A DNA stretch of 63,905 nucleotides. Origin: a virus (lineage: Duplodnaviria; Caudoviricetes). Under the pieces are notes generated by a model, which saw nothing but the letters and a program-made list of their open reading frames with translations, was not told the DNA's origin and did not search any database. Position numbers and translations under genes: made by a program. Positions 1 through 49,947 of this stretch are shown here, in pieces. The stretch lies in the IMG/VR virus record IMGVR_UViG_3300023180_000052, positions 1 through 63,905 of that record, one strand, 5' to 3'. Within the stretch, counting starts at the first letter, position 1. Every line of letters starts with the position of its first letter.

Positions 1-44
1 GTGTTTAACCTACTTCTCAACCCACCCACGACAAGGAGACAGAA

Positions 45-893
45 ATGAGAAGACTAGCGTCAGAAGTCCTTAGAGACTTACAATTAAGAGTGGCTCGCCT
101 TGAGCGAGAGTCTGCTAAAGTTTATACAGAAGATATGATCGAACGAGAAATACAGAATGCAGGTCGTTTATCAAACGTAGACCCTGCTTTGGCTAAGTAT
201 CTCGTGGAACATGGTGATGGAAGTCAAGATAAGATTAAAGTCAGGAAAACTAAGGTTCAAGCAGGTCGTTTAAATCCCTCACAGACTAGTATGCGTTTGC
301 CTCAGTCTGTGAGTATGGCTCTTGGTATTCTTTCAGGTGCTTTTGATACTGATCTTGGCTGTATCATTTCTAGTGATGGTCAGATTATGGACGGACACCA
401 CAGATGGAGTGCTGCTATTATCGCACTTGGACCTCGTGTGCAAGTTGGTGGTTATGTGGCAGACCTTGAGGGTCGTCATCTTCTTAAAGTTTTGAACATC
501 GTTAGTAAAGGCGAGTTCAATGAAATGAAAGGCAAGCCAGGTTCGGGTGATATTACTCAGTACACTCCACAGGCAGTAGAGAATGAGCTTAGAAAGCTCG
601 TTCTTAAGGGAAATGAGTATAATTCTCCTGAGAAAGTTAAACAACTTTTGATAGATAATTTTGGCTCTGTTGAAGAGGGTATCGCTACTATGTCTAACAA
701 TGTTAAGAGCATGAGTAAGGAAGTCCCGTCTTGGGCTCCTGATCGCTCAGAAATGCCTGTCATTGATGGCAAACAGAGGACCGAACAAGCTGCAAAAATG
801 CTTAATGATGGTGAGGTAGAGTGGAATAAGCCATACCCATCAGAAATCAGACTTGCTCGAAGAAGACGAGAGCAGTTTCGTAGACACTATTAA
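45..893 (+). CDS. ParB/Srx-like N-terminal domain protein with the shared leader peptide
   Basis: LNPSQ and IISSDGQIMDGHHRWSA match the ParB/Srx nucleotide-binding signature; begins MRRLASEVLRDLQLRVARLE; AAGGAG RBS upstream. Confidence 0.7.
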   Translation: MRRLASEVLRDLQLRVARLERESAKVYTEDMIEREIQNAGRLSNVDPALAKYLVEHGDGSQDKIKVRKTKVQAGRLNPSQTSMRLPQSVSMALGILSGAFDTDLGCIISSDGQIMDGHHRWSAAIIALGPRVQVGGYVADLEGRHLLKVLNIVSKGEFNEMKGKPGSGDITQYTPQAVENELRKLVLKGNEYNSPEKVKQLLIDNFGSVEEGIATMSNNVKSMSKEVPSWAPDRSEMPVIDGKQRTEQAAKMLNDGEVEWNKPYPSEIRLARRRREQFRRHY

Positions 894-11450: not shown

Positions 11451-11851
11451 TTGTATAGCTTATAGACCTCTATATCAACTTCACCATTTCCATGACTTGC
11501 TTTGCGTACAGAGAACTGAATAAGTCTAAGTTTAGTCCATTCGTAAATCACTTCTTCTGTAGGCTTTTTCAGTTGGTAGCCTTTCTCAAAGTTGTAGGTA
11601 CTGACCTTCACTAATCTCTTTGATTCGTCATAAGTGCATTTGTGAATCTGAGCAACAGGGACAATGTGTCTAACTTCTGTTCTGATGAAGCGTACTTCCC
11701 TAGTAGGATAGTTGCACCCTTTAGAGAGAGGGAGCGACCATACCACAGTTTTTATTTTCTGTGGCGTAGATAGAAATAAGACTGAAGTGATAGTAATGGC
11801 GAGGGTTAACATCAATTTGGTTGTGTGTTCTTGAGTCATAAGGTAGGTCAC
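11447..11851 (-). CDS. Hypothetical exported or membrane-anchored protein
   Basis: N-terminal hydrophobic helix; GAAAGGA RBS on the minus strand. Confidence 0.6.
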   Translation of the reverse strand: MTYLMTQEHTTKLMLTLAITITSVLFLSTPQKIKTVVWSLPLSKGCNYPTREVRFIRTEVRHIVPVAQIHKCTYDESKRLVKVSTYNFEKGYQLKKPTEEVIYEWTKLRLIQFSVRKASHGNGEVDIEVYKLYN

Positions 11852-11905
11852 TTTCCTTTCGGTTTGGGTATAAGCTATACCTCACATACTTCAAGGAGAT
11901 TGTAA

Positions 11906-12658
11906 ATGTCAGTGGACTTCTTAGACAGGAAAGTCGATATATTTAATGACGGTATCGGAGGGGTTGCACTCATTCAGAGTATGGGTGATGACTTGACTAT
12001 CGTAAATGCTGCGAGAGCAAGTCTCGATCAGATTTCAACAGAAATGGGAGAGCGAGAAGAGAGGCTTTCAAACTTCTTAATTCGCTCAGGTCACACCTCC
12101 ACAACAGAACATAATGTAATCACTTTTTGGATTAAAGTTCCTATGTTCGTAGCTCGTCAGCAGATGAGACATAGGACTTTTTCTTATAACGAGATTTCTC
12201 GCAGATATACCTCAGAGAAGTTAGAGTTTTACTTGCCTCAAGAAATGAGGAAGCAAGACGAGAAGAACAGGCAGGCGAGCTTAGATGAAACCTTCAATCC
12301 TACGATTGAGTATGACCCTTATGACTATCCTAAGTTCTTAAAGTTAGACGCTGTGTCTGCAATCAAGAACCATGTTAGTGACTCAGTAAGGCTCTATAAT
12401 CAGATGATTGATAAGGGTGTTGCAAGAGAGCAGGCTCGTATGGTCTTGCCTCAGAATATCTATACTACTTATTGGGCAACAGGCTCACTTCACAATTGGG
12501 TGAACAGCTTCATTTCCAAGCGAGATCACGAAGATGCTCAATGGGAAATCAAGCTCCTAGCTCGTGAGATAAGCCGTCAGATCGCTGAGGTATGGCCTCT
12601 TGCCCACGCTAACTTTGTGAAGCATGGGAAGATACCTGCCTTAGATTCTGAAATATGA
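11906..12658 (+). CDS. thyX: Flavin-dependent thymidylate synthase
   Basis: RQQMRHRTFSYNEISRRY signature, AREQARMVLP, AQWEI. Confidence 0.96.
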   Translation: MSVDFLDRKVDIFNDGIGGVALIQSMGDDLTIVNAARASLDQISTEMGEREERLSNFLIRSGHTSTTEHNVITFWIKVPMFVARQQMRHRTFSYNEISRRYTSEKLEFYLPQEMRKQDEKNRQASLDETFNPTIEYDPYDYPKFLKLDAVSAIKNHVSDSVRLYNQMIDKGVAREQARMVLPQNIYTTYWATGSLHNWVNSFISKRDHEDAQWEIKLLAREISRQIAEVWPLAHANFVKHGKIPALDSEI

Positions 12659-12731
12659 ATGACTTTGAAATACTTTTGTTATGTTGCATACCTTTTTTGA
12701 TTATGATTGCTAAAGATTTTTGAGGTTTAGT

Positions 12732-12962
12732 ATGCCCCCTTTATTAAGAAATGAAATAGAACCTAACATTCGAGATATAAACATAGAGATACAAGCCCTA
12801 GAGCGAATGATTGACTTCTATGTTAAGTACGAAGAAAAGCATGGTGAGCATGAGTACACTACTGAGCGAATTACAAAGCTAAACAACAGATACGCAGAGT
12901 TTCTGATTGCGGCTCAGATTACAAGGGGAGGGGCTGAGGCTCCTCGTCTGATAGGCGACTAA
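12732..12962 (+). CDS. Hypothetical protein
   Basis: GAGG before ATG 12732. Confidence 0.55.
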   Translation: MPPLLRNEIEPNIRDINIEIQALERMIDFYVKYEEKHGEHEYTTERITKLNNRYAEFLIAAQITRGGAEAPRLIGD

Positions 12963-13010
12963 TAACTTTTCTATCTACCTCAGCTAGAAATAGAAAAGTT
13001 GAGGTGGCTT

Positions 13011-13577
13011 ATGTGTGTAATCGGACAAGGCGAATACGCAATTCTTCTTAAAGGTGGATTAGTTAAGCTCAAGAATGGTGATGTCTATCACTTATCTGAC
13101 TGTACGTTGGAAGCAGGAGGGAGACTTGCTCTTTCTATAGGGCAAGTAAGCTCTACTAAACCCCCCCGAAGTAAACCTCCTAAAAAAGTCATTAAGGGGG
13201 AAGTTCTTTTTAGTGATTCTGAGGAAGTTCATTTCTTGGAGGAAGGGCTTCGAGAACCTGTTGTCGTACTAAAAGAAATACGACAGGAAATACAGCAACC
13301 ACCTCCTCTACCCCCACCTGCTGAAATCCCTTATTCTCCTTTTGTAGTTATGGGAGGGATTCTCATGTTTGTTCTTAAAAAGGTAGCAGGTCTTGATCGT
13401 GTCTTGAAAGCAGGAACTTGTGAAATGAGGCATCAAGAAGCAATCTTCCGTATTGCTAAACTTGAGGGTAAAGTCTTGAGGAAGCAAATCGTGGATGGGG
13501 CTAAGGGTGTTAAAGGGGCTAAAGAGAAATGGGACAGCAGGAAAGCTAAGGAAGAAGACTCCTCGATAGATTCTTAA
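13011..13577 (+). CDS. Hypothetical single-pass membrane protein
   Basis: Pro-rich linker then hydrophobic helix; GAGGTG RBS. Confidence 0.6.
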   Translation: MCVIGQGEYAILLKGGLVKLKNGDVYHLSDCTLEAGGRLALSIGQVSSTKPPRSKPPKKVIKGEVLFSDSEEVHFLEEGLREPVVVLKEIRQEIQQPPPLPPPAEIPYSPFVVMGGILMFVLKKVAGLDRVLKAGTCEMRHQEAIFRIAKLEGKVLRKQIVDGAKGVKGAKEKWDSRKAKEEDSSIDS

Positions 13578-13686
13578 TCTCTTTATCGTAGGTAGTGTTT
13601 TAACCAAATTCACACCACCTACGGTAAGGAGCGTAAGAAATGAAACGATTAGCTTCAGAAGTTCTAAGAGACTTGGAAATAAGAGT
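13554..13686 (+). repeat. Direct repeat copy 1: promoter-like motif, RBS and leader-coding cassette
   Basis: Near-identical to 14623-14754. Confidence 0.95.
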
Positions 13687-14587
13687 CGCTCGTCTTGAAA
13701 GACAAGTCGGTTTTGGGTTCAATCGTATGTCAAAGTCTTCTTCTCACAACAAGAGTGCAGTCTTAAGTGGGCTTGCCTCGAAAGTAGAAGACTTTTATGT
13801 TTACTTGAAGAGAGAGTTGCCAGGTGAGAAAGAAAGGAAAGAAATACTTTCTAAGATTGTTTCTGACCTTGAAGATGAACTGATTAATTCTATTGAGAGC
13901 TTTCAAGGGGATGGTTGGGTAGGGAAAACTAAAGGTAGAGTCAAGTGCTCAATCCAATCGGGTCAGTTAGTCATAAGCATTTCTGTAGATACCCTCAATA
14001 ACGAGGACTCTATCACTCTTAAAATCTCTGAAATGTCTGATCTTATACCCTTAAAGATGTATGTTTGGGACCTTAAGACCGAGTGGACGAAAGACTCTTG
14101 GACAAGAAGGCAGGTTACCAGAAGAATCCCTTTTGAAGTGTGGGATATGATTTTGAGAATAATCACTGAGACTCTTGAAATGCCACTATTCTTACCCATG
14201 CTTCAAGGCGATTTAGCAACACTTGCTGATCGTGTTGACGCATCTCTTAGAAAAGAGTTTGAAAAGAAATTTTGGGATAGACTTGAGAGGTACTCATCAG
14301 TAGCCGCTAAGGTGCTAAAGGCTATTGCTAAGATTGGGGTAGGGGCTTTAGTTGTAGGGCTTTGCATTTCTGTCTTTATGCTTATCCCTTGGGGTTTGAT
14401 TGGAAATTTGTTGGTAATGCTTCTGAAATCAATCGTAGCCGCATTAGCGATTATGGCAGGTGGCTACCTCGGCACAATCATCGGTGGAGGGTTAGGTTCT
14501 TTGAGGGTGGCTAACGAAATACCTGACGACCCCGAAGAGAGGTTAGAGCTTTTCTTAGAAGTTCTTGAGCAAGAGGGGATTGCTTAA
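13640..14587 (+). CDS. Leader-bearing hypothetical protein with C-terminal hydrophobic helices
   Basis: MKRLASEVLRDLEIRVARLE; Gly-rich TM-like segments near the C-terminus. Confidence 0.75.
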   Translation: MKRLASEVLRDLEIRVARLERQVGFGFNRMSKSSSHNKSAVLSGLASKVEDFYVYLKRELPGEKERKEILSKIVSDLEDELINSIESFQGDGWVGKTKGRVKCSIQSGQLVISISVDTLNNEDSITLKISEMSDLIPLKMYVWDLKTEWTKDSWTRRQVTRRIPFEVWDMILRIITETLEMPLFLPMLQGDLATLADRVDASLRKEFEKKFWDRLERYSSVAAKVLKAIAKIGVGALVVGLCISVFMLIPWGLIGNLLVMLLKSIVAALAIMAGGYLGTIIGGGLGSLRVANEIPDDPEERLELFLEVLEQEGIA

Positions 14588-14622
14588 TAATGATTAAGCT
14601 ACAGCCTCTCCCATACGAATAT

Positions 14623-14754
14623 GAAGACTCCTCAATAGATTCTTAATCTCTTTATCGTAGGTAGTGTTTTAACTAACTTCACACCATCTACGGTAAGGAG
14701 AGAAGAAATGAAACGATTAGCTTCAGAAGTTCTAAGAGACTTGGAAATAAGAGT
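14623..14754 (+). repeat. Direct repeat copy 2
   Basis: Near-identical to 13554-13686. Confidence 0.95.
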
Positions 14755-15439
14755 TGCCCAACTTGAAAAGTCATCATCAGACGATGATTGGCTCGTGAAT
14801 GAACTAGAGTTGTTCATCACCAACGAGTACAGCCTCTACGGAATGATTCAGGCAGTTGTTAAGAACCAAGCGAAGCACTACCAAAGAGGTCGTTGGAACG
14901 AAGCAGGTGCTATCAAGGGCTTTATGAATGTCGTAAACGCAGGTATCAAAGAGTATCGCAGACAGGGACTCGACTTACCTACTCGCATTTCTCGCCAAGT
15001 AAAAGAAGAAGTCGCTAAGAATCTCTTTGAATTCTATGAAGAAGACATCAATGACGCTATTGGAACTCCTATTCGTAGTGCCTCTTTAAGAAATGCAGGT
15101 CGCAGATTTGACGCTGATGAGTGGGTCTTCTTTATCCATGAAGAAACAGGGCTTGAAGATGATCGCAAAGGTCATAGAGCAGCTGAAACTCTGAGAAAGA
15201 GATTTGAAGATCGTCTTGAAGACGTTTGCGAAAGAAATAACCTCAGCATCTGTTCCGATGAGGGCGTGAGTGAAACGGCTTGGAAAGCGTTTGCTTCTAT
15301 CGTAGGGCATGGTACGGGCTTGTGGGATCACGATCATGCTGAAGCTAAGATTCTTGAGGAATTGGTCTTCAAAGATCGTCTGCTCACTAGCGTTGCTCAA
15401 GACATTGACAACCTACCTTATGAGCTAGGTTTAGCGTGA
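14708..15439 (+). CDS. Leader-bearing two-module hypothetical protein
   Basis: MKRLASEVLRDLEIRVAQLE; internal IRSASLRNAG junction. Confidence 0.75.
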   Translation: MKRLASEVLRDLEIRVAQLEKSSSDDDWLVNELELFITNEYSLYGMIQAVVKNQAKHYQRGRWNEAGAIKGFMNVVNAGIKEYRRQGLDLPTRISRQVKEEVAKNLFEFYEEDINDAIGTPIRSASLRNAGRRFDADEWVFFIHEETGLEDDRKGHRAAETLRKRFEDRLEDVCERNNLSICSDEGVSETAWKAFASIVGHGTGLWDHDHAEAKILEELVFKDRLLTSVAQDIDNLPYELGLA

Positions 15440-15443
15440 TCTG

Positions 15444-15839
15444 ATGAGAAAGCTCGCTGAACTAGAAGCTCGAATAGCTCGGTTAGAGAAGCGAGCTACA
15501 AATAAGGTTTACCCTATCTACACGACATTTCAAGGGCATGATGAACGCACGATCAAGATCATTCCACTTCCTAGAGTCTTAGAGGCGATGGTTCAAGACC
15601 GAAGAATAGATGAAGATCAGATCATAGAGTACATGACACTCAGAAAGAAATACACTGTCGATTTTGTCGCTGATATGTTTATTATGTTTTGCGAATCTCA
15701 AACAGGTAAGTCTTTTCCGATTTCTTTTAAGGACGACAAAGAAGTTGTCGTGGATATGAGTGAATGGCCGGAAGATGATGGCTTTGATCGTTGGTTTAAG
15801 GATTGGGCTGAAACCTACTTGGTTAACATCATCGACTGA
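15444..15839 (+). CDS. Hypothetical protein with shortened leader
   Basis: MRKLAELEARIARLEKRA. Confidence 0.7.
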   Translation: MRKLAELEARIARLEKRATNKVYPIYTTFQGHDERTIKIIPLPRVLEAMVQDRRIDEDQIIEYMTLRKKYTVDFVADMFIMFCESQTGKSFPISFKDDKEVVVDMSEWPEDDGFDRWFKDWAETYLVNIID

Positions 15840-16316
15840 TTACCAATTCTTGGTGTACTTGTCGGCAACAGCCGAAGCCCCCCAAGATTTCGGTTTTATT
15901 TCTACCTCAGAATATGCGTAGCCTCTGACTAAACTCATCATAGCGTTCGCATACTTCGAGGTCTTATGTCGTGAGTTTTCAGGGCTTACGTCTAAGTGTA
16001 TTTCTATGCTCGCATCAGAGCTTATTTCTTTCACCTCCTCAGCCACTTTGATACTCGCCATTGTTTCAGAGTAGAGCCTCTCATATAGACTGATCTTGTG
16101 AGTATAACGCTCTTTTTTGCGATGATAGAAATACCTTCGGTGATGGCAGTTTTCAGAGGAAATGAGACATATAGCCGTCACAACGACCACCCCACTTCTG
16201 AACGGCTGACTGTCACTTCCGATGATGATCTTGTGGTTGGATTCGCAGACACTTGTTAAGATGTCTTTGATCTCTTCCCAAGTCGTGTCTTCAGAGTCAG
16301 CTCGTTTCCAAGTCAT
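15840..16316 (-). CDS. RNase H-like YkuK (DUF458) family protein
   Basis: IIIGSDSQ, RLYSET, EIHLDV, KPKSWGASAVAD. Confidence 0.8.
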   Translation of the reverse strand: MTWKRADSEDTTWEEIKDILTSVCESNHKIIIGSDSQPFRSGVVVVTAICLISSENCHHRRYFYHRKKERYTHKISLYERLYSETMASIKVAEEVKEISSDASIEIHLDVSPENSRHKTSKYANAMMSLVRGYAYSEVEIKPKSWGASAVADKYTKNW

Positions 16317-16348
16317 TTCATTTCCCTCGCTTTCTGAGGGATTATACC

Positions 16349-17635: not shown

Positions 17636-17698
17636 TTCTTATCTCCAATCCTTGTCCTATTATGGAATACATAACTACTCTATTAAGGAGAGAAACTT

Positions 17699-18166
17699 AT
17701 GATGAATCCCAAACATTTAAAAATAAGACTCCAACAATGCGATTTAATCGCCTCAGCGTCACCTTGTGGGCGTAGGAAAGTTGGTGCGTTAATTTTAGAC
17801 CCTCTTTCAAATATTGTAATAAGTGAGGGTTATAATGGAACGCCACGAGGAAACAGGTCGCCCTTGTGTGGAGGTCATACTTGTAAGAGAGATACTCTGA
17901 ATGTAGCGAGTGGTACGAGAAATGATGTGGGTTGTCATCATGCAGAAGCGAACGCTATACTTAATGCCTGTAGAGTGGGTCAGACTACTATGGGGAAATG
18001 GTTAATAGTAAACTGTGACCCTTGTTTAATGTGTGCGAAGATGATTCATCACGCAGGCATAGAAATGGTTATCGCACCTTTAGATCATGGTGGGGTACAT
18101 GGAGAGGGGCTGTCTTACTTGTTAGAAAACCAAGTCAGAATCAAAGGGTTTTCCGAGTTCTTTTAG
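17699..18166 (+). CDS. dCMP deaminase
   Basis: RKVGA, GYNG, HAEANA, PCLMC. Confidence 0.92.
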   Translation: MMNPKHLKIRLQQCDLIASASPCGRRKVGALILDPLSNIVISEGYNGTPRGNRSPLCGGHTCKRDTLNVASGTRNDVGCHHAEANAILNACRVGQTTMGKWLIVNCDPCLMCAKMIHHAGIEMVIAPLDHGGVHGEGLSYLLENQVRIKGFSEFF

Positions 18167-18222
18167 CTTCTTTATAATGCTCTTAGAGGAAAACATAGTG
18201 TTAGTTTATTAGGGGTAGCTTT

Positions 18223-24018: not shown

Positions 24019-27000
24019 ATGAGTTTTTCCTCTTTAGCTATTTCAGCGAGTGCGAGGGCAGGAAAGCAGTCAGAAAAGAACGCAGATATTATCGAGTTCG
24101 TGGAAGCCCCTTGGGGCTTGAAGATGAAGCTATTTCCTGTTCAGCGAGTGATCTTAAAAGTTCACTACGGGCTTGAATTAGATGATACCAAGACCTTTGA
24201 AATATCTGATTGGCGAAGGCAGAACGTAGAAGTACATACTGAAAAATCTTATCTCAAGAAACTTTATGACGAAGGTCGGTGCAACGTAGGTGAGGTAATC
24301 CCTGGCAAACAACGTAGGGAAATGATCTTGTCAATCGGTAGACGTTCGGGGAAATGCGTCACAGGAGACACTCTTGTCACTACAGATAGAGGACTCGTCA
24401 GAATAGATTCTTTAGGTGATGTGAATGGGGCTGAGTTTCAGCCTCTTTCTGTGTCCGTTACTCAAGAGGGAGGTCGAGTTTCAAGGTCTGCTTATTTCTA
24501 TAATGGTGGTGTTCGTCAGACGAAGTACTTTAGAACCAAGTCGGGATATGACCTTGAGGGAACAGGCAACCATCGAGTGAAAGTCCTTACTCCCGAATGT
24601 GAGATCAAGTGGAAGTTTCTCCAAGATATTTCTGAAGGAGATATGGTTGGTATCAACAGGAGCAATAACCTATTTCCTTATAACTACTTATGTCTCAGCA
24701 AGTATAAAGAGGGACTCACTGACCAAGAACATCTCCCTAACTACTTAGACGAGAAATGGGGTCAGCTTCTAGGTATTTTAGTGGGTGACGGCTTATGGAC
24801 AGAACATAGATGCGTTAAAGTTTCTGTGGGGGAAAGTGGCTTTGACAACTACCTAGTTAACTTCTTTAAGAGTTTGTTTAAAAGAGTCTCTTACTACCCT
24901 GACTTGAGAACCGAAAATGCAGGGTCTGTAGTAGCAAATGGTTCATATAACCGACTTTTCTTAGACCGACTAGGTTGGGTTATAGATGTCACTTCTAGCA
25001 CGAAAGAAATACCTCATTCAATCAAGGCTTCTCCTGCTTTAGTTCAGATGGCATTTCTGAGAGGGTTATTTGAGACAGATGGCTGTGTTTCAGGGCCGAA
25101 GATAGCTTTCAGCACAGTGTCGTCAGAGTTGGCTCGTCAAGTTCAAGTGATGTTGTTAAACTTAGGGATTACTTCGAGCCGATCTGAGAGAGTGCGTTCT
25201 AAAAAGAACCACTCAAATGAGTTCGTTGTTTCTATTAAAGGCTCAAGGTCTAAGAGAACTTTTGCACAAAAGATCGGGTTTATTTCTGAGAGGAAAAAGA
25301 AGCTACTTCAAGAGCTAGTTTCGACCCTCACATATCGGGAGTCGAGAGAGGGCGTTCCGTTCTTCCTAGACCTCTTGAAGAAAGAGGGTTTGAACCTTTA
25401 CTCTTATGATAAGAACACCATTCCTTATTGGAAGCTCAAGGAAATCCTTCCTCAGCTTAGGGGTGAGATCAGACAGAAATGTGAAACGCTAATAGACGCT
25501 GACTACTACTTTGACCCTGTAGTTGAAGTGAGGGATTCTGAGAATCGGGTGTATGACTTGAATGTGCCTGATGGTTCGAGCTTCTTGGCGAATGGCTTCA
25601 CTAACCACAACACGACTATTTCTGCGTGTATTGCGGCTTATGAGACGTACAAACTCATCAAGAAACAAGACCCTCAGAAATACTACGGACTTCCTGCGAG
25701 CAATAACATTCAGATCATTTCGGTGGCGACAGATAAAGACCAAGCAGGGTTGCTCTATCAAGAAGTGTCGGGTCACTATCGCAACTGTTCTTTCTTCGGT
25801 CCATACACAGCGAATAATACTCTGAGCTATGCTCGATTTCAGACCCCTGCCGATGTTGAAAAGTACGGTAGGTACATTGAGAATTCGAGTGCGAAAGCAA
25901 CGCTCAAAGTCACCTTCAGATCATGTGTCGCTAAGGGTCTTCGTGGTGCAGGTAATATATGCGTTATTCTTGACGAGGTTGCTCACTTTACAGAGTCGGG
26001 TCAATCGGGTGCTGAGGAAGTGTATAACGCTGTTGTGCCTTCGACCTCAGCATATTCACCGAAAGACCCCGACAACCCTACTGTTCCTATTGGAGAAGTA
26101 GAGGGTCGTGTTATTCTCATTTCTTCGCCACTAGGTAAACAGGGTCTGTTCTATAATCTATTTCAGATCGGTATGCGAGGAGGTAAAGCGAGCGAGAATA
26201 TCCTTGCCGTTCAAGCTCCTACTTGGGAAGTAAACCCCACCGTCCCTGCTGAGGAATTCGAGAAGCATTATCTTAAAAATGCGGCTGTCTTCTTTACGGA
26301 GTATGGTGGCGAGTTTACAGATCGTACTAGGGGTTGGATTGAAAAGTCTGAGGACTTGTTTGCCTGCGTTGATGTCGGTCTTAGAGCAAAACAGAAAGCT
26401 CCTGCGAGGAAACCTCATTTCATGGGGATTGACTTGGGTCTTGTAGGTGACGGCACAGCGATAGCAATCGGGCATCTTGAGGAAGATAAGATTGTTGTGG
26501 ACTTGGTGACACAGATCAAAGCAGGTGAGGGAGAGTATGCTGAAAAAGATCGCTTAGACTTTGATGATGTAGCTGATTGGATTCTTGAAATGACCAAGAA
26601 GTTCTATGTGGTTGAGGGTATCTTTGACCAATGGGCAGGTATCCCCTTAGAGCAAGCGTTGTCGAAGCGTGGTTTAGGTCAGATGAAATCGGTGCAGATG
26701 ACGAAGCAGTTGACCTCTCAGATTTTCCAAAACTTTAAGGACATGATGTGGGACGAAAGGCTTGGTTTATATGACCGACCTAACCCTGAAGAAGATGGAC
26801 ATGAGCCTTACATACAAGAGCTTTTAGAGCTTCAAGCGAAGGTTCAGAGTAAACACCTCATTACTGTAGAAGCACCACAAGTACAGGGCAAACATGACGA
26901 TATGTCAGACGCATTAACTCGTATGATTTGGATAGCTTCTCAGCAGATAGGGAAGCAGAGGTATTTCGCAGGAGGTTCGGGTAGATCATCAATGGGCAAC

Positions 27001-27138
27001 TATTCTAGTGGGAAAGGCTTTGCAGGAGGCACAAGACTTAGAGGAGGCTCAGACCCTCGTAGAATTGCTCCCCGAACGACAAACCGATCTGACAAACACA
27101 GCATAAGAAATCGAATCTTAGGAAATAAAAAGAGGTAA
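24019..27138 (+). CDS. terL: Terminase large subunit (intein-containing)
   Basis: Spliced Walker A GRRSGK/T, Walker B ILDEVAHF, ISSP, nuclease GIDLG..D and HDDMSDA. Confidence 0.92.
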   Translation: MSFSSLAISASARAGKQSEKNADIIEFVEAPWGLKMKLFPVQRVILKVHYGLELDDTKTFEISDWRRQNVEVHTEKSYLKKLYDEGRCNVGEVIPGKQRREMILSIGRRSGKCVTGDTLVTTDRGLVRIDSLGDVNGAEFQPLSVSVTQEGGRVSRSAYFYNGGVRQTKYFRTKSGYDLEGTGNHRVKVLTPECEIKWKFLQDISEGDMVGINRSNNLFPYNYLCLSKYKEGLTDQEHLPNYLDEKWGQLLGILVGDGLWTEHRCVKVSVGESGFDNYLVNFFKSLFKRVSYYPDLRTENAGSVVANGSYNRLFLDRLGWVIDVTSSTKEIPHSIKASPALVQMAFLRGLFETDGCVSGPKIAFSTVSSELARQVQVMLLNLGITSSRSERVRSKKNHSNEFVVSIKGSRSKRTFAQKIGFISERKKKLLQELVSTLTYRESREGVPFFLDLLKKEGLNLYSYDKNTIPYWKLKEILPQLRGEIRQKCETLIDADYYFDPVVEVRDSENRVYDLNVPDGSSFLANGFTNHNTTISACIAAYETYKLIKKQDPQKYYGLPASNNIQIISVATDKDQAGLLYQEVSGHYRNCSFFGPYTANNTLSYARFQTPADVEKYGRYIENSSAKATLKVTFRSCVAKGLRGAGNICVILDEVAHFTESGQSGAEEVYNAVVPSTSAYSPKDPDNPTVPIGEVEGRVILISSPLGKQGLFYNLFQIGMRGGKASENILAVQAPTWEVNPTVPAEEFEKHYLKNAAVFFTEYGGEFTDRTRGWIEKSEDLFACVDVGLRAKQKAPARKPHFMGIDLGLVGDGTAIAIGHLEEDKIVVDLVTQIKAGEGEYAEKDRLDFDDVADWILEMTKKFYVVEGIFDQWAGIPLEQALSKRGLGQMKSVQMTKQLTSQIFQNFKDMMWDERLGLYDRPNPEEDGHEPYIQELLELQAKVQSKHLITVEAPQVQGKHDDMSDALTRMIWIASQQIGKQRYFAGGSGRSSMGNYSSGKGFAGGTRLRGGSDPRRIAPRTTNRSDKHSIRNRILGNKKR
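24355..25611 (+). mobile_element. Intein (419 aa) with LAGLIDADG homing endonuclease
   Basis: Starts CVTGDTLV, block B TGNH, LLGILVGDG and FLRGLFETDG, VYDLNV, ends THN-like NHN followed by Thr. Confidence 0.95.
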
Positions 27139-27142
27139 TATC

Positions 27143-27370
27143 ATGCTCCCTAGAGAAAGAAAGACAGCAGATCATCGAGTGCTTGGTAGAATACTAGAAC
27201 TTAGCTTTGGACAAAAAGAGCCTAAAGATTCGACAATCAACTTTATTTCTGAGCTATTTATGCGTATGGGAGGAAGTTGGGTAGGTTTTTTTCAAGGCGA
27301 CCCCAAGCAAGTAAGATTACTAAAACAATGTTCGGCGGCAGTCGTTAAGAGAGAAAAAGAAAATGAGTGA
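27143..27370 (+). CDS. Hypothetical protein
   Basis: GAGG RBS; coupled to the portal start. Confidence 0.65.
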   Translation: MLPRERKTADHRVLGRILELSFGQKEPKDSTINFISELFMRMGGSWVGFFQGDPKQVRLLKQCSAAVVKREKENE

Positions 27371-29033
27371 TGATTCCGTAGAAGTAGGGAAGATACTCCC
27401 TCGATCAAAAGCTATTTCACGCTCTTTGACGGCTTCAGAAATGAAGTCTCGTGTGAAGATAGCGATGACTACATCAGGGACTCAGATGGGGTCGGGTGGT
27501 AACTTTTACTCGCCTGAACTTTCTACTGATTTCCTTGAGCTTCCACAGAGCCAAGACGAACAACGCAACTATTTCAGATTCTTCTATCGTACTGACCCTT
27601 TCGTGGGTCAAGCTGTTGACTTACATACTGAACTACCTCTCTCAAAGATTAGGCTCGGTATGCCCAAGTCGAGAAATAGACAGATGGCAGAAGCCTCTCT
27701 CAGATTTTGCGAGAAATGGGCTAAGCGTATCGGTCTTTTACACAGGCTTATTGAGATTCTCCATGAGTATAATCTACTCGGTGAAGTGTTCGTTTTCTGT
27801 GAGGATAATAACCCCGATGTGCCTAGAGAAGTGACTCATAACAAAGTCAATGAGATCACAGAAGAAGGAGCTGAGGTTAAGTATTACAAAAAAGACGATG
27901 CTGATGACTTGGCTTATAAGTGGATGAAGAAGAACTACAAGGGGTGGACAGCGATTAGAATCTTGCCTCCCGAACAAGTTCACATGGAGTCATTTCCTTT
28001 CACAGATGAGAAGATCATTTCTTTAGTGCCTGACTCTAAGACTAAAGATGTAGTCGAGCGTTCAGCGATGCAAGACCCTGACGCTATGCGTATCGTGGAC
28101 TCGATGCCCGAAAACGTAGTGGAGTCGATTAGAGAGGGGCGAAATATTCCTCTTAATACTGACCCCACATTAGGTTCTTTCTGCTATTTCATGGCTCGTA
28201 AGAAATCGCAGTATGAACCTCGTGGTCACTCTATGCTTGAGAGATGTCTCAGAATCTTGGTGTATCGAGACAAACTCCGACAGGCTCAGACCTCTATTGC
28301 TTCTCGTCACATGACTCCTATTCGTCTTGTCTATGCAGAGGATATGGACATGAATGATGTGGAAGCGTTGAGAGAGCAAGTAGACTTAGCACTCCAAGAC
28401 CCCGACTACTCGATCATCGCTAACTTTCAGATTAGTTGGGAAGAAATGGGTGCTGACCAACGCTTGCTTGATCTTGGGGGTGAGTATGATATGACTGACC
28501 GACAGATGTACGCAGGCTTGGGGGTTACGGAATCACTCTTATCGGGTGAGTCTAGCTATTCGGGAGATCGCATTAACCTAGAGGTGATTAACACTCGCTA
28601 TATGTTAATGAGAGAGGTCTTGCAGGAAATGGTTGAGGAAAACATTCTGAAACCAATGTGTAGACGCATGGGCTTCGTGGAGGAAGATGAAGACGGTGAG
28701 GAAGTGGTGGTACACCCGACTCTGAGCTTCACTCGTCTTGGTTTGCGAGATAACCAAGATACCTTTGACGCTCTGTTCAACCTTTATCAAAAGGGGTCGT
28801 TGGACATTGACATTATTCTTGAGCTTCTCAACGTAGACCCTGAGTCCACAAAGAGGAAGTTAGAACGTGATATGTGGACGATGAATGACTCTCAATTCAA
28901 TGAGGTTCTGCGTGGCATTTATGGTGAAGCAGGTCGTATGCTTGCAGAGAACTCTGAGGTTATTGAGAAGATCGCTGCTAATCTCGGTTTGGAATATACA
29001 CCACCTGCTGAAGATGAGGGTGGGCGTTTCTAA
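27363..29033 (+). CDS. Portal protein
   Basis: 556 aa after terL; FFYRTDPFVGQAVDLH, EYNLLGEVF, RGHSMLERC, GLGVTESLLSG portal-like pattern. Confidence 0.8.
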   Translation: MSDDSVEVGKILPRSKAISRSLTASEMKSRVKIAMTTSGTQMGSGGNFYSPELSTDFLELPQSQDEQRNYFRFFYRTDPFVGQAVDLHTELPLSKIRLGMPKSRNRQMAEASLRFCEKWAKRIGLLHRLIEILHEYNLLGEVFVFCEDNNPDVPREVTHNKVNEITEEGAEVKYYKKDDADDLAYKWMKKNYKGWTAIRILPPEQVHMESFPFTDEKIISLVPDSKTKDVVERSAMQDPDAMRIVDSMPENVVESIREGRNIPLNTDPTLGSFCYFMARKKSQYEPRGHSMLERCLRILVYRDKLRQAQTSIASRHMTPIRLVYAEDMDMNDVEALREQVDLALQDPDYSIIANFQISWEEMGADQRLLDLGGEYDMTDRQMYAGLGVTESLLSGESSYSGDRINLEVINTRYMLMREVLQEMVEENILKPMCRRMGFVEEDEDGEEVVVHPTLSFTRLGLRDNQDTFDALFNLYQKGSLDIDIILELLNVDPESTKRKLERDMWTMNDSQFNEVLRGIYGEAGRMLAENSEVIEKIAANLGLEYTPPAEDEGGRF

Positions 29034-33119: not shown

Positions 33120-34520
33120 ATGGGATTTCTAAAGTACGCAAAAGCTGAGGTAGTACGACCTCAGCTACATGGGCTAGAATGGGATAAGATTCGAGTTGCT
33201 TCGGGGGCGAAAAAGCTCGACATTTCTCTCAAGAAAAAAGCCGAGGAAATACTTGGCGAGCCTTTTACACCTGATCGTTTCCTCTTAACTCACTCGACAA
33301 TCGTCTGCTCTGTAGACGCTGTTTCTGTTCCTAATACTAAGACAGGTTCGGTTGAGGAAGAGGGTCAGCAGATCAACAGGAAATACGCAGACTACCGAGT
33401 CACCTCAGAGACAGATAAGTACATCAATAACAACCTCGACTGTTGGTCAAGAGGGGTTATCAAGAAGTCTTATAAGACTTTTGTAGGGGCTCATAATTTT
33501 GTGGAACACGTTCAAGTCGAAGAACTTTCTAAAGGGCGTATTATTGACGCTGTTCTTAGAGATGTTGGTGAGTCTATTTATGTGGATATTCTTGTAGCCA
33601 CAGATAGAAAACACGAGGACTTAGTTCGCCAAATCTTATCAGGCGAAATGAACGCTATGTCTATGGGGTGTTCTGTAGACTTTACTATTTGTACGAAATG
33701 TGGACACGTTGCGGCAGATGAGCCACAGATGTGTAAACACGTTAAGTATGAAAAGGGAAATTGGTTCTACGATGAGAGTGGAAATAAGCACCGAGTTGCA
33801 GAGCTTTGTGGTCACGAGACTACGGGTGAAACAGCAGGTGTCACTTTCATTGAAGCGTCTTGGGTTGCAGTTCCTGCCTTTAAGGGAGCTGTCGCTAGAA
33901 ATACGCTTGAAATACCTTCGACTGATGCTAACCCACAGGAAGCTACTCTTAATGAAGTTCCTGCTCAATGGTTAAGCAAGTCAGCTTCTTCTAAGCTCGG
34001 ATTTGATTTCGGAGATGAAGAAGAAGAAGAAAAAGAAGAAGAACCAAAGGTAGACCCTGACGCATCAATCTTAGATCAACTTGAGGGCGTTGTTACTGAG
34101 GCTTTAATCGAGAGACTTCGTAAGAAGCTCGATAATGAGATTAAGCAAAGCCTTGTCGAAAAAGCAGTTAACCTTCCTGCAACTTCTGACGCTACTCAAA
34201 CAGACGATACGATCATTAAAGAGGGTACAAATAAGCGTAAAGAGACTCTTTACCTTATGGCTCTTGATCGTGCTGTGAAAATCGCTTCTTCTCAGAGACA
34301 AGCGATTGAAAACATCAGACTTGTCAATGACAGGTTTGACGTTTATCTTCCTTCTTATTTATACAAGATAGCAGGACAAATAAAAACTGCTGACAAGTAT
34401 AGTAAGGTCGGTAGTTTTATTTCTGACGCTGAACGTGTTCATGGTCAGAAATTGACTCAAAAAGATTCCCTTCGCTTGGTGCGACTTTCCAAGCTTCTTT
34501 CATTCATACACGGGCGATAA
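33120..34520 (+). CDS. Prohead maturation protease with Zn-finger insertion
   Basis: FVEH, GRIIDA, AMSMGC, CTKC..C.H, FIEASWVAVPAF resemble the HK97/assemblin-fold serine protease pattern; canonical position. Confidence 0.75.
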   Translation: MGFLKYAKAEVVRPQLHGLEWDKIRVASGAKKLDISLKKKAEEILGEPFTPDRFLLTHSTIVCSVDAVSVPNTKTGSVEEEGQQINRKYADYRVTSETDKYINNNLDCWSRGVIKKSYKTFVGAHNFVEHVQVEELSKGRIIDAVLRDVGESIYVDILVATDRKHEDLVRQILSGEMNAMSMGCSVDFTICTKCGHVAADEPQMCKHVKYEKGNWFYDESGNKHRVAELCGHETTGETAGVTFIEASWVAVPAFKGAVARNTLEIPSTDANPQEATLNEVPAQWLSKSASSKLGFDFGDEEEEEKEEEPKVDPDASILDQLEGVVTEALIERLRKKLDNEIKQSLVEKAVNLPATSDATQTDDTIIKEGTNKRKETLYLMALDRAVKIASSQRQAIENIRLVNDRFDVYLPSYLYKIAGQIKTADKYSKVGSFISDAERVHGQKLTQKDSLRLVRLSKLLSFIHGR

Positions 34521-34551: not shown

Positions 34552-36336
34552 ATGGCTAGAAATAATCGCTTCCGCAGGGCTAACTCAGGGCTCCCTGGTT
34601 ATGATAACCTTGGCTTTGAGAGTTTCGGACACCCTGCTTCACAGGCACAGCCTTCTGTTGATTCTTATGGCATTGACTCCGAGTTCGGAGAAGGTGTACG
34701 CAAAGGTCCATATAAGAGTGGTCCTGCACCTGCTTCTTATGCTTGGACTCCCGATCACCCTGCGGCAGATGATGAGATCATTGACGATTTCGCAGAGACT
34801 CGTGATCTTTACGAGCAGAATCTGAAACTCGCTATGGAGCGTAAAGCGGCAAAGTGCATCGAGATCGCTGAGAGCCGTCTTGGTAAGACTGCTTCACAGG
34901 GTGAGATCGAAGACCTCGCACTTCGCTACATGGACTTGCCTTCTCGTCAGATTAACGCAAAGCTTCAGAGCCTTGCTTCTGATTTCCTAGCAGGTGACGA
35001 AATGCAAGAAGCTACAGGCTATGAGGGCGATGATGTCGGCCCTGGCAACGTAACTGCTGAAGACACCACCGTTGCTGAAGACCTCGCTGAGGAAATCGCA
35101 ATGCTTAAAGCGGCTAACGCTCGTCTTACTCGTCAAATGCGTAGACTCGCTGAAGATGTTGTCCAAAAAGAGACAGGCTACGAGGGTACTGATGAGAGCG
35201 TAGAGACTCTTGACTCAACTGAGTCTGAGGGTCCAACCAAGAAGCTCGCTTCTGAGGCAATGGCTGAGGACATGGCTATTCTTTCTGAAATGATGGCTGA
35301 GGCGGCTCACATGGGCGATTCAGCTCGTATGGCTGAGATCATGGCTGAAATGGATCTTGTAGCTAAGACTTATCAGAAGCACAATGCTTATGGTGAGGCG
35401 GCTCCAGGCTTCGGTTATCAAGACCCTGATACTCGTGCTGAGAACCGTTCTACAGGAAATAAGGATTGGAACAAGAAGACCAAGCATTTCCACAACCTCA
35501 ACTATTACACAGCAAACAAAGAGCTTTGGAAGAAGGCAGACTTCATGGCTTCTGACATTCTTAGCGATGAGGAGTTTGCTGAGGTAATGGCAGAAATGGA
35601 AGCAATGGCTTCTGAGGAAATGGCAGGTGGTAAGGGTTCAGGTGGTAACTCTAAGGGTTCACGCAAAGTCATCAATCAGTATGGCGAAGCGGCTCCAGGC
35701 TTCGGTTATCAAGACCCTGACGTTCGTGCTCAGAATCGTGCCAACAGAGATAGTGATTGGAACAAGAAGACCAAAGAGTTCTACAACAAGAACTACTACT
35801 CTGAGAATCGTGGCAAGATTGAAGGTTGGCCTACCCCTGCTAATCCTCGTGTAGCTGAAATGGAAATGGCTGACGATCAGCTTGCGTCTGAAGAGCAGGC
35901 GATGCTTGACGAGATGCTCGCTGAAATGGAGAGCATGGCTAATCAGAATACCATGATGGCTTCTGACGAGGTGGCTTCTGACGAGGTGGCTTCTGACGAG
36001 GTGGCTTCTCACCACATGAGCGAGAGCGTTGAGTCTAGTGACATCATGGGTCTTGACCTTATGTCTGACGAAATGGGTCTTGACCCTAAGCTCGCTCGCA
36101 TCTTCCAAGCCGCTGAGGAAGTAGCTGAGGATTCTGAGGCTTCTGAGGAAGTAGCTGAGGAGACTGCTGAGGAAGCTGTTGCTACCAAGAAGTCTGCTTC
36201 TTTCCGTCCACAGACAACTGCTCGCCAAGCGTCTGTTAAGACTCTCGGAAATATTAGCCGTGAAGCAAGCTCTGCTTCTGACGAACTCAGCAAGCTTTGG
36301 GAGTCTGCTCCTGACGTTTCTAAGTTCTTCGGCTAA
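34552..36336 (+). CDS. Scaffold-like acidic protein
   Basis: E/A/M-rich low complexity, between protease and capsid genes. Confidence 0.6.
   Translation: MARNNRFRRANSGLPGYDNLGFESFGHPASQAQPSVDSYGIDSEFGEGVRKGPYKSGPAPASYAWTPDHPAADDEIIDDFAETRDLYEQNLKLAMERKAAKCIEIAESRLGKTASQGEIEDLALRYMDLPSRQINAKLQSLASDFLAGDEMQEATGYEGDDVGPGNVTAEDTTVAEDLAEEIAMLKAANARLTRQMRRLAEDVVQKETGYEGTDESVETLDSTESEGPTKKLASEAMAEDMAILSEMMAEAAHMGDSARMAEIMAEMDLVAKTYQKHNAYGEAAPGFGYQDPDTRAENRSTGNKDWNKKTKHFHNLNYYTANKELWKKADFMASDILSDEEFAEVMAEMEAMASEEMAGGKGSGGNSKGSRKVINQYGEAAPGFGYQDPDVRAQNRANRDSDWNKKTKEFYNKNYYSENRGKIEGWPTPANPRVAEMEMADDQLASEEQAMLDEMLAEMESMANQNTMMASDEVASDEVASDEVASHHMSESVESSDIMGLDLMSDEMGLDPKLARIFQAAEEVAEDSEASEEVAEETAEEAVATKKSASFRPQTTARQASVKTLGNISREASSASDELSKLWESAPDVSKFFG
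35957..36009 (+). repeat. 15-bp coding tandem repeat (VASDE)
   Basis: tggcttctgacgagg x3 plus partial. Confidence 0.95.
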
Positions 36337-37128: not shown

Positions 37129-38007
37129 ATGAGTAATACAGTTGATAACGCAGTAAAGCAGAAGATCATTGCTGACTACATCAAGACCCCACAGGGTCGT
37201 AGCAAGCTAGCCGCTTCAATGACACAACCACTTCGTCTTCGTCGTGACTATACGAGTGTTGGTCGTAAGACTTTCCTCGTAGAGCAACTTCCTGATGGTG
37301 CTTTGCCGATCTACGACAAAGACCCTGACGTAACTGCTTTCGTAGTTGGTGAAGAAGGCGAGAACATTCTTGCTATCACCAAGCCACGTCGTGTCATTTT
37401 CCCTCTCTTTGAGATCGCTTCTAACCCTGAGATTCCATTGACTCAGATTAAGGAAAGACGCTTCGATCTTATCGAGAGAGCACAGGATTTGGCTCGTGCT
37501 CAGATTCAGGCGGCAGAGGACGAGCGTGTATTCGCTATCCTCGATGCTGTTGCGACTCAGGGCTTCGACTCAATCGCAGGTCAGACTAACGCTGACATTC
37601 CTGTTATCGCTCCTCTTAACGGTGCTGTTCTCGCTGACGCATACGCTCAGATTGAGCGTCACGATCTTCGTGTAGCTCGTGTCTTTATGAATGCTCGTGA
37701 CTACGCTGACATCCGTAAGTTTGGTCGTGATATTCTTGACATCGAGAGCCAAGCGGCTCTCCTCAAGACAGGTCTTCAGGCTACCCTTTGGGGTGCTCAG
37801 ATTATCACTAGCCGTCTCGTTCCTGTTGGAACTGTTTACGTCTGCTGTGAGCCTGAGATGTTCGGTCGTATTCCTGTTCGTACCGAGCTTACCGTTCTCT
37901 CTGCTGACGATCCAAAGGCTCGTACAATTGGATTCAGCGTATTTGAGAATTTGGGTATTGGAGCCTACAACCCTAAGGGTCTAGCTCGCCTTACCGTTAC
38001 TCGCTAA
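37129..38007 (+). CDS. Major capsid protein (HK97 fold)
   Basis: Position, strong codon bias, FEIASNP, IQAAEDERVF, LWGAQII pattern; followed by a terminator. Confidence 0.82.
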   Translation: MSNTVDNAVKQKIIADYIKTPQGRSKLAASMTQPLRLRRDYTSVGRKTFLVEQLPDGALPIYDKDPDVTAFVVGEEGENILAITKPRRVIFPLFEIASNPEIPLTQIKERRFDLIERAQDLARAQIQAAEDERVFAILDAVATQGFDSIAGQTNADIPVIAPLNGAVLADAYAQIERHDLRVARVFMNARDYADIRKFGRDILDIESQAALLKTGLQATLWGAQIITSRLVPVGTVYVCCEPEMFGRIPVRTELTVLSADDPKARTIGFSVFENLGIGAYNPKGLARLTVTR

Positions 38008-39431: not shown

Positions 39432-39437
39432 TTCTAG

Positions 39438-39492
39438 GGGATAGAAAAGTCTATACTTAACAACAAGTGCATACTTTTCTATCCCTTTTTTT
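39438..39492 (+). terminator. Long-stem terminator-like hairpin
   Basis: gggatagaaaagt ... acttttctatccc plus T-run. Confidence 0.7.
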
Positions 39493-39552
39493 GTTTGTTT
39501 ATCTTCTCTATTAGGTGTTCCTTTAACCTTTAGCTCATACGGAGAAATGATT

Positions 39553-39918
39553 ATGAGAAGAACAGCATCAGAAGTCCTTAGAGACTTAGAAATAAGAGTA
39601 GCCAACCTTGAAAAACAAGCGAGTATCATTGCTAACACCATAGTTCAACAGCTTGGTGGTAGTCGTAGGCTTCAAATTTTCATTGGGTTAAAGCAGATTC
39701 TTACTGCGTCTAATGCCGTTACCTTAGTATTTCCAAAACCTAAACATAGAGGTGCTGTGAATAGGGTTCGTATCACTCTTAATGGTAAAGACCTCTATGA
39801 CATGGAATTCATTCGCACTCATGGTCATAGCGTAAAGGTAGTAAAAGAGTTCAATGATGTTTATGCAGAGGACTTGAAAGATCGGTTTGAAGATGGTACA
39901 GGACTCTACATTCGTTAA
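39553..39918 (+). CDS. Leader-bearing hypothetical protein
   Basis: MRRTASEVLRDLEIRVANLEKQAS then a compact alpha/beta domain. Confidence 0.75.
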   Translation: MRRTASEVLRDLEIRVANLEKQASIIANTIVQQLGGSRRLQIFIGLKQILTASNAVTLVFPKPKHRGAVNRVRITLNGKDLYDMEFIRTHGHSVKVVKEFNDVYAEDLKDRFEDGTGLYIR

Positions 39919-49938: not shown

Positions 49939-49947
49939 GGTAGTGAT

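Follow-up and report, generated by a model that had tools for sequence, protein, structure and literature searches.

A duplicated cassette joining putative expression signals to a common N-terminal leader peptide in an uncultured relative of Bacillus phage G

Why should two neighbouring genes whose products are otherwise unrelated begin with the same stretch of DNA, running from the last codons of the preceding gene through the ribosome binding site (RBS) and some 20 codons into the coding region? The question is raised by an uncultured tailed virus (Duplodnaviria; Caudoviricetes) known from IMG/VR record IMGVR_UViG_3300023180_000052, in which a single contig of 63,905 bases, hereafter the window, is the record's whole genome for this virus. 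Two near-identical cassettes stand in tandem in front of the open reading frames (ORFs) 13640-14587 and 14708-15439 and give both products the same N-terminal peptide, here called the leader or tag, followed by a protein-specific part, the cargo. At the level of DNA we regard it as very probable that this repeat is a portable cassette that provides signals together with a tag, and that its copies mark the gain and loss of gene units.

Over the 147 columns of a pairwise alignment, 13554-13700 and 14623-14768 show 9 mismatches and one single-base gap, and the flanks on both sides of this 147-nt unit are unalignable, both ends being sharp. A repeat search returned 13554-13631 versus 14623-14700 (95% over 78 nt) and, further 3′, a 66-nt family with four copies, namely 13635-13700 as the reference, 14703-14768 (94%), 40-105 (79%) and 39548-39613 (73%). 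The longest exact runs common to both copies are 52 nt (13635-13686) and 39 nt (13566-13604), and a chance match is excluded because the 63.9-kb window holds only 5 direct-repeat families of ≥40 nt. The initial annotation, made from the letters of the window, had described a slightly shorter repeat whose identity ends near the end of the leader and which has diverged versions elsewhere; the repeat is real and extends to 13700 and 14768, identity is lost at codons 19-21 in both ORFs, and the weaker copies occupy 1-105 and about 39490-39613 (Table 1). From 5′ to 3′ the unit consists of the last seven codons and the stop of an upstream gene, which we call gene A, a T-rich stretch with TTTAT, a hairpin, the Shine-Dalgarno (SD) sequence AAGGAG and the ATG with 20 codons, the first 20 codons of the frame encoding the leader MKRLASEVLRDLEIRVARLE. 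Also as annotated, the end of gene A is present in copy 2, in the form of its last seven codons and stop (GAAGACTCCTC[G/A]ATAGATTCTTAA). There it terminates a mini-ORF, which on the alignment is best taken as a remnant of the duplication junction, and because the gene A tail ends this mini-ORF we read copy 2 as coming from a locus in which the cassette followed gene A.

Table 1 Positions of the cassettes, tagged ORFs and head genes in the window.
Feature	Position	Strand	Basis
Third, diverged cassette, truncated by the contig start: 3′ half of the 5′ untranslated region (UTR), SD (AAGGAG), leader codons 1-20	1..105	+	repeat search
Tagged ORF, 282 aa (MRRLASEVLRDLQLRVARLE...); cargo matches phrog_2859 (unknown function)	45..893	+	orthologues in L032 and L040, about 60-62% identical
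Untagged upstream gene A, 192 aa; last codons and stop within the repeat	12999..13577	+	in L056, a homologue stands next to a tagged gene
Cassette copy 1: last codons and stop of gene A, TTTAT (13582-13586), hairpin, SD, leader codons 1-20	13554..13700	+	repeat search, alignment
Predicted RNA hairpin: 5′ arm with TTTAT, 3′ arm with SD AAGGAG	13579..13631	+	folding
Tagged ORF 1, 315 aa, its C-terminal third hydrophobic; this unit is missing in the X17 strain	13640..14587	+	orthologue P0033
Mini-ORF of 18 codons ending in the copied gene A tail (MIKLQPLPYEYEDSSIDS and stop)	14590..14646	+	alignment, ORF list
Cassette copy 2	14623..14768	+	repeat search, alignment
Tagged ORF 2, 243 aa, no known family	14708..15439	+	orthologues P0005-P0007, P0061
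ORF of 131 aa with half-leader (ELEARIARLEKRA), without a cassette of its own; begins 4 nt past the previous stop	15444..15839	+	profile match
Large terminase	24019..27138		PHROG profile
Portal	27363..29033		PHROG profile
Head-maturation-protease-like gene; candidate tag-removing enzyme	33120..34520	+	phrog_18299, E 6.9e-16
Acidic, Met/Glu/Ala-rich scaffold-like protein; candidate docking partner	34552..36336	+	composition, alignment
HK97-fold major capsid (major head) protein; tagged genes cluster 3′ of it	37129..38007	+	PHROG profile and sequence matches
Fourth cassette: terminator-like hairpin and T run (39437-39492), TTTAT (39498-39502), TTTAACC, SD, leader	39437..39621	+	repeat search, sequence
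Tagged ORF, 121 aa; cargo in phrog_9437, whose other members lack the leader	39553..39918	+	residues 27-123 match profile positions 2-97 of 98

The leader opens four ORFs of the window and, as a half-copy, a fifth. This half-leader (ORF 15444-15839) is degenerate, reading MRKLAELEARIARLEKR, and matched the leader profile at E 0.074 in one search and at E 7e-4, over model positions 11-23, in another. The proteins behind copies 1 and 2 have MKRLASEVLRDLEIRVA[RQ]LE in common and nothing else, and their cargoes, named below by the first position of their ORFs, showed no BLASTP match to each other at E≤1e-3 beyond residue 24; they are not the full-length paralogues that the initial annotation had allowed for. 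For four of the five tagged window ORFs, Pfam, PHROGs and NCBIfam gave nothing beyond two PHROGs of unknown function. Cargoes 13640 and 14708 had no match at E≤1 in a phage collection, nor had the DNA of 13000-16000, and a 26-residue leader query of the same collection returned a single row at E 5, that is, no deposited phage with the leader at that sensitivity. Residues 1-40 of ORF 14708 used as a query returned only 4 proteins from a word index ill-suited to short queries, and the ESM Atlas gave no usable lead for either cargo. More can be said of ORF 39553-39918, since its cargo has leaderless relatives: the homologue in the uncultured 485-kb phage LR745208.1 begins directly at the cargo, as found by tblastn and hmmsearch on the record, and the same local searches found no leader anywhere in that 485-kb sequence. 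These relatives and the leader-free LR745208.1 identify the leader, as far as sequences can tell, as an add-on and not an old domain of the tagged proteins.

Beyond the window, the same modularity recurs on a large scale. When viral contigs were scanned with the four window leaders, 73 stretches matched, 44 of which were confirmed and reduced to 40 loci; together with the 5 window ORFs they yield 45 tagged proteins that, after removal of the first 24 residues, fall into 27 BLASTP cargo clusters, cargoes 13640 and 14708 being singletons. A profile of 29 leaders, searched against 1.84 billion representatives of 50%-identity clusters, matched 1057 cluster representatives at E≤0.001 (65 at E≤1e-10). 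Among the 150 best matches, the match begins at residue 1 in 140, and 141 begin with the leader motif. In these 141 proteins (median length 139 aa, range 40-346) positions 1-23 are nearly fixed, following the consensus M-R-R-T-A-S-E-V-[IL]-R-x-L-E-x-R-[VI]-A-R-L-E-[RK]-Q-[AS], with Ala5, Leu12, Leu19 and Glu20 invariant; conservation collapses after position 23 and is gone by position 25. Cargo isoelectric points are bimodal, and hydrophobic segments occur in 2 of the 141 as well as in window ORF 13640. None of the 150 best leader-bearing proteins has a Pfam family at E≤1e-4, and two of 25 locus cargoes have a WGR domain, the remaining matches being weak or to families of unknown function. Both WGR proteins (L039:3001-3813, E 4e-13; L044:3001-3792, E 3.5e-15) continue with about 140 unassigned residues. 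WGR domains occur in poly(ADP-ribose) polymerases, and these cargoes are of interest since Alt of phage T4, which is also capsid-targeted, is an ADP-ribosyltransferase.

What is kept in the leader is evidently the peptide. In 69 distinct leader DNAs the invariant residues are encoded by up to 6 synonymous codons each (Ala5 by four, Arg15 by six; Ser6 by TCA in 31 and by AGT/AGC in 33, 27 of them AGT), and third-position identity of leaders between contigs is 54%; because invariant residues use so many synonymous codons, selection acts on the peptide. Residues 4-21 have a hydrophobic moment of 1.57 versus 0.77 for shuffles, and Leu12 and Leu19 are spaced by one heptad, Val8/Ile9 and Val16 lying in between, so we read the leader as a predicted amphipathic, coiled-coil-like helix. 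A second leader, whole or half, stands between two cargoes in proteins P0011, P0048, P0012 and P0009 and in ORF 191916 (minus strand) of the related genome G001, and tandem double leaders are also seen among these five. The internal half-leaders look like scars of exchange inside the leader, and the two-cargo fusions would be small polyproteins if the end of the leader is a protease site.

The initial annotation had also placed a promoter motif in the cassette. TTTAT is indeed conserved: of 47 distinct upstream regions of tagged genes, 40 have it 35-85 nt ahead of the ATG (peak 50-59), versus 11 of 49 untagged window genes, and TTAACC, 15-50 nt before the ATG, is present in 16 of the 47 versus 1 of the 49; the UTR motif GTNTYYTTAACC has 8 window matches versus 5.15 expected, which is no window-wide enrichment. 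A sigma-70 consensus scan found no site at 13554-13640, 14623-14708 or 39490-39553, and we therefore infer that TTTAT is probably a phage-specific promoter. In many cassettes TTTAT is directly preceded by a hairpin and T run, as at 39437-39492. A different hairpin, in which TTTAT and the SD are predicted to lie on opposite arms, characterizes the tandem copies: the predicted folding energy is -30.3 kcal/mol for fragment 13570-13645 (z -7.6; equalled by 0 of 200 shuffles) and -28.2 kcal/mol for fragment 14639-14713 (z -6.3; equalled by no shuffle), and in the fourth cassette no SD-burying hairpin was found (z +1.0). By analogy with T4 late genes discussed below, a transcript starting at TTTAT would be without the 5′ arm and would leave the SD free, which would amount to a translational switch. 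TTTAT in a 5′ arm pairing with the SD is seen also before two untagged genes, those of the ribonucleotide reductase (RNR) small subunit (start 967; 894-966, -23.6 kcal/mol) and of a 1341-aa head-module protein (start 29091; 29034-29090, -19.5 kcal/mol), so that the possible switch is a general feature of the phage.

Strain variation at the locus was followed in contigs of four public runs, compared with the window over 11000-18500 as assembled contigs and not as reads; gaps in the coverage of run X12 and the small-share runs X18-X24 were set aside. In run X17 a contig (3890 nt, depth 8.15) spans 13142-13556 and passes, across four letters, to 14633-18103; as assembled, gene A, a single cassette and the 14708 cargo are present in this strain, which is without exactly one unit, that of 13640. 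In run X13, a contig of 1039 nt leads from the 13640 cargo to 14624, through 21 other letters and then into gene A at 13477-13524, and this joint represents either a longer gene A remnant after the cargo, from a tandem duplication, or a circular piece. Run X1 matches the window exactly, and its pieces stop at the repeats, at 13595/13657 and 14664/14725. Because no X1 contig bridges either copy, the unit order rests on the original assembly and on the same order in the X13 pieces. Loose ends of X1 at 14640 and 14669 reflect that the cassette at the start of the window has the same 30-nt core as copy 2, which is also why the contig begins there. Of the junctions between copies that had been anticipated, the deletion joint is thus present (X17, 13556 to 14633) and the circle joint is ambiguous (X13, 14624 to 13477). 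The proposal that copy 1 served as the template fared worse: the single X17 cassette beside gene A aligns better to copy 2, X13 has the longer gene A remnant behind the 13640 cargo, and the observations are explained equally well by unequal exchange between two alleles.

To see where tagged genes lie in whole genomes, the relatives of the virus have to be named. The capsid protein of the window is 87.9% identical to that of LR745208.1, 47% to that of Tunturiibacter phage Tunturi_5 and 38% to gp27 of Bacillus phage G, and related viral contigs measure 227-376 kb, one of them rated 100% complete; from these capsid relationships and contig sizes the window is read as a fragment of an uncultured jumbo phage related to phage G. 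Related genomes of 376, 275, 290 and 227 kb carry 31, 13, 17 and 12 tagged ORFs, respectively, and in the one rated complete 31 are tagged among 451 greedy ORFs, 27 of the 31 starting with the full leader. Tagged ORFs lie on both strands and are spread genome-wide, yet clumped: G001 has 11 neighbouring tagged pairs ≤2 kb apart versus 4.6 expected (P 0.001), and four tagged genes stand in a row in locus L033 and three in L053 and in loci of the L052 type. In 4 of 5 genomes (the window, G001, G003 and G004) a tagged gene lies ≤4.5 kb downstream of the scaffold gene (chance P 0.015), just beyond the decoration and capsid genes, and in L028 a tagged gene separates the portal gene from the head gene that follows, a position without one in the window. 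Gene content at this place is anything but fixed, a point on which the initial annotation had made its reading depend. Loci whose capsid protein is 93.8-99.5% identical to that of the window have one to four tagged genes beside the capsid gene (L033 four, L053 three, L031 two, L056 and L066 one each), and the single clustered cargo differs in each, one cargo per locus having been clustered. Together with the missing unit of the X17 strain, these variable units with unrelated cargoes bear out in part the earlier idea of a cassette that would confer tag and expression within an expandable array, save for TTTAT as the promoter and copy 1 as the template.

Two genes of the head module are candidates for handling the tag. 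For the protease-like protein a sequence search of the PDB found nothing, and its models reached a predicted local distance difference test (pLDDT) of 39.9 in the first and 52.6 in the second; Foldseek with the low-confidence model placed T4 gp21 (5jbl) in the top row, but at E 0.06, and the comparison with gp21 by VIA (Z 3.6, root mean square deviation 4.3, 126 aligned) was tied with unrelated chains. The protein has an invariant Cys/His cluster (C184, C191, C194, C205, C230, H196, H207, H232) that looks like a metal site, and its family has 1657 members at E≤1e-5, all unnamed. The scaffold-like protein has 35 highly conserved C-terminal residues, as expected of a scaffold, and a helix, LAEEIAxLKAANARLxRxxRxLA, that is conserved in 5 of 5 leader-bearing genomes and was not found in LR745208.1, a co-occurrence that covers five leader genomes and one leaderless relative and hence too few genomes. 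Homology of the leader to this helix was rejected (hhalign probability 4.8%, with only 9 aligned columns). Elsewhere among the head proteins, [RK]Q[AS] and LE[RK]Q had a few scattered matches, one of them RQAS ahead of the conserved C-terminus of the scaffold, too few for a cleavage site to be called. The scaffold-like gene also contains an 80%-identical direct repeat (35382-35508 versus 35673-35799) with the module YGEAAPGFGYQDPD...DWNKKTK...NYY, and its middle region varies greatly between relatives.

Taken together, the cassette may be viewed as a start module that runs from a preceding stop codon through TTTAT and a hairpin that could bury the SD to the first 20 of the 23 helix codons, so that a gene placed behind it would gain expression signals and a peptide at once. 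Recombination among the many genomic copies, or between alleles in co-infecting relatives, could add, remove or swap units and build tandem arrays. The peptide would act as an address, by which small proteins of a large and rapidly changing repertoire are docked into the head during its assembly, where the head protease may cut it after Leu19-Glu20 or within [RK]-Q-[AS], and the tagged proteins would travel with the DNA into the next cell, as the T4 internal proteins do. Capsid loading is, by analogy, our best single explanation of what the tag does, and one that we believe and doubt in equal measure.

A number of observations weigh against this interpretation in one part or another. The joints of X17 and X13 are taken from contig assemblies of other strains and represent variants, not the recombination event itself; a strong SD-burying hairpin is predicted in only 9 of 48 cassettes; and TTTAT also precedes untagged genes, such as that of the RNR small subunit, and so indicates no late or head-specific timing. 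Tagged genes are dispersed over the whole genome, here including places beside ThyX and PhoH, and in G002, one of the five genomes, no tagged gene is near the head genes. LR745208.1, with a capsid protein 88% identical, builds its head without the leader. The fold searches assign the protease-like protein to no clear family (E 0.06; tied Z), the tagged proteins are known from sequence, and the leader is without a conserved T4-type Leu/Ile-x-Glu, position 18 being Arg in 129 of 141 and Glu20 invariant; Ile/Leu9-x-Glu11 occurs in at most 22 of the 141 leaders.

Some of these points would be better accommodated if the leader were a docking or oligomerization helix for a hub other than the capsid, such as a tail or baseplate part, a phage-built compartment, a membrane complex or a host protein, with cargo that acts unpackaged in the infected cell. 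Conservation of nearly all helix positions including the polar faces suggests a specific partner, though not necessarily one in the head, and the genome-wide distribution of tagged genes, the bimodal isoelectric points, the unrelated cargo sequences and the hydrophobic segments of a few cargoes all agree with such a hub; the gathering of tagged genes downstream of the capsid gene in 4 of 5 genomes and the portal-head position in L028 do not, and no candidate hub outside the head module turned up, although no systematic search was made. We consider this alternative unlikely, if the most serious one to be set against capsid loading. Were the leader instead a control signal, whether a degron, a chaperone or export signal or the site of a translational regulator that imposes common timing or turnover, one would understand why the tag comes with its own upstream motif (40/47) and at times with an SD-burying hairpin (9/48), co-regulation being built in. 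The synonymous codons, though, show that the peptide and not the RNA is conserved, the results point to no protease adaptor or export system, and to our knowledge a 23-residue amphipathic helix conserved on all faces is longer and more specific than the known degrons, which makes a control signal quite improbable.

The absence of Pfam families from all 150 cargoes leaves room, by sequence, for a hidden common ancestry of many small cargoes, and hence for the view that there is no module, merely one old paralogous family with a slow N-terminal helix and fast remainders in which the 147-nt repeat is a recent local duplication. That view is very improbable in light of the leaderless relatives of the ORF 39553 cargo and the WGR cargoes in L039 and L044, of cargo lengths of 40-346 aa, of a drop from near-invariance to no conservation within two residues, and of a repeat that includes non-coding DNA and another gene's tail; in addition, the fusions carry half-leaders between cargoes. 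That the tandem order itself is an assembly artefact of repeated sequence we hold to be extremely improbable. It would explain why X1 contigs stop at both copies and why the window contig starts in a third one; against it, the longest exact common run, 52 nt, is below usual read length, an X1 piece (13657-14664, 0 differences) joins the 13640 cargo to the remnant of gene A and the 5′ portion of copy 2, the diverged X13 strain has the same order, and close orthologues of both cargoes exist elsewhere.

If the tag does load the head, a new injected protein could be gained in one recombination step, with signals, RBS and address together, and the at least 1057 clusters, none of the 150 best with a Pfam family, would form a focused list of candidates for early-acting functions in host takeover or anti-defence, for which the easily recognised leader could be used to mine metagenomes. 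More tentatively, and as a possibility that we think rather doubtful, the helix might be the general cargo-loading address of a large estuarine and marine clade related to phage G, docking on a conserved part of the scaffold (candidate LAEEIAxLKAANARLxRxxRxLA) and giving each phage a private, exchangeable set of 10-30 injected effectors. If so, more than 1000 domainless cargo families would constitute a stock of injected proteins for host takeover and anti-defence, and foreign proteins could be loaded into very large capsids, much larger than that of T4, with the tag as a ready handle. Even without capsid loading, the strain lacking one unit offers a clean natural case of cassette-bounded gene gain and loss outside the T4 group.

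As for the remainder of the window, PHROG profiles name, besides the head genes of Table 1, genes of nucleotide metabolism, i.e. the RNR small subunit, ThyX, dCMP deaminase, thymidine kinase and PhoH. The public runs in which the locus occurs are metagenomes from salt marsh, estuary and lagoon by their labels, and 12 salt-marsh runs contain at least half of the sampled words. Between the capsid gene and a tagged gene, 38520-39431 encodes a LAGLIDADG homing endonuclease (PF03161, E 3e-19); the same gene is present in G001 (95% aa identity) and had no match in the L033, L066 and L031 stretches examined, whose capsid proteins are 96-99.5% identical. An adenylate/guanylate cyclase-like gene (8812-9702; PF00211, E 9e-7) is conserved beside tagged genes in L052-type loci and is found also at the start of G001. 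ORF 47891-49507 contains an array with a 9-nt period (49057-49361, 19 overlapping copies) and its product therefore a tripeptide repeat. The adjacent ORFs 49507-49938 and 49948-50418 have a 62-nt sequence in common at their 3′ ends (49879-49940 versus 50359-50420; 84% identity) and hence a common C-terminal peptide, a mirror image of the common N-terminal leader.

How does the cassette compare with what is known? In phage T4 the late genes e, soc and I-TevI have an RBS that a hairpin sequesters on long transcripts, whereas transcripts initiated at a promoter within that hairpin leave the RBS accessible. Copies 1 and 2 share this layout, with a promoter-like motif in the 5′ arm and the SD in the 3′ arm; they differ in that a strong hairpin is confined to a minority of the cassettes and that the transcription start would be at a putative site. 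The capsid targeting sequence (CTS) of the T4 proteins IPI, IPII, IPIII and Alt was reportedly described by Mullaney and Black in 1996. The CTS is an N-terminal peptide of 10 residues that loads unrelated, even foreign proteins into the scaffolding core and is removed by gp21 (PMC3012670, PMC9026906), whose logo is quoted as 'LIE' (PMC9026906). Measured against that description, both systems have a short N-terminal peptide common to unrelated, fast-changing small proteins, with a cargo set that varies between relatives; the two peptides themselves look unrelated. The leader differs in having 23 residues instead of 10, in being a predicted amphipathic helix and in being without the conserved Leu/Ile-x-Glu, and in scale, with 12-31 tagged genes per genome and >1000 cargo clusters versus a handful in T4; moreover, this phage is related to phage G and not to T4, and packaging and cleavage are here putative. 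Other jumbo phages, phiKZ and SPN3US, package tens of proteins, a subset of which have N-terminal propeptides cut after Glu by the prohead protease (PMC10052503, PMC5694885); as described there, the propeptides differ from protein to protein, unlike one common sequence encoded by a DNA cassette.

The nearest likeness at the level of DNA is to the promoter early stem-loop (PeSL) cassettes of T4-type phages, which drive indels and mini-circles (Arbiol et al. 2010, PMC2839356) and whose modules are treated by Comeau et al. (2014, PMC4122927). As described there, PeSLs extend from an upstream stop codon to the start codon in the order AT-rich stretch, promoter, stem-loop, SD and flank ORFans in variable regions, and recombination between neighbouring copies can excise units. 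A repeated intergenic module with an upstream stop, an AT-rich stretch, a stem-loop, an SD and a start codon is present here in every element, and indels between close relatives are likewise bounded by modules, as seen in the X17 joint and in the varying cargo at the capsid loci; for the mini-circles there is one ambiguous counterpart, the X13 contig joint that goes back to gene A with 21 letters between. In contrast to the PeSLs, the repeat here runs about 60 nt into the coding region, so that a protein tag moves with the signals, there is no sigma-70 (-35/-10) consensus and instead TTTAT about 55 nt before the ATG, and in some copies the hairpin pairs a promoter-like motif with the SD and is not a terminator. 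A search of open-access full text found no description of this leader, and in the open literature searched the fusion of both principles in one repeat, the leader itself and the scale of its use appear to be undescribed. The kind of element is already known from the T4 CTS and the PeSL cassettes (PMC2839356, PMC4122927), and the repeat is best read as a mobile regulatory cassette comparable to the T4 PeSLs that has become fused to a targeting tag comparable to the T4 CTS.

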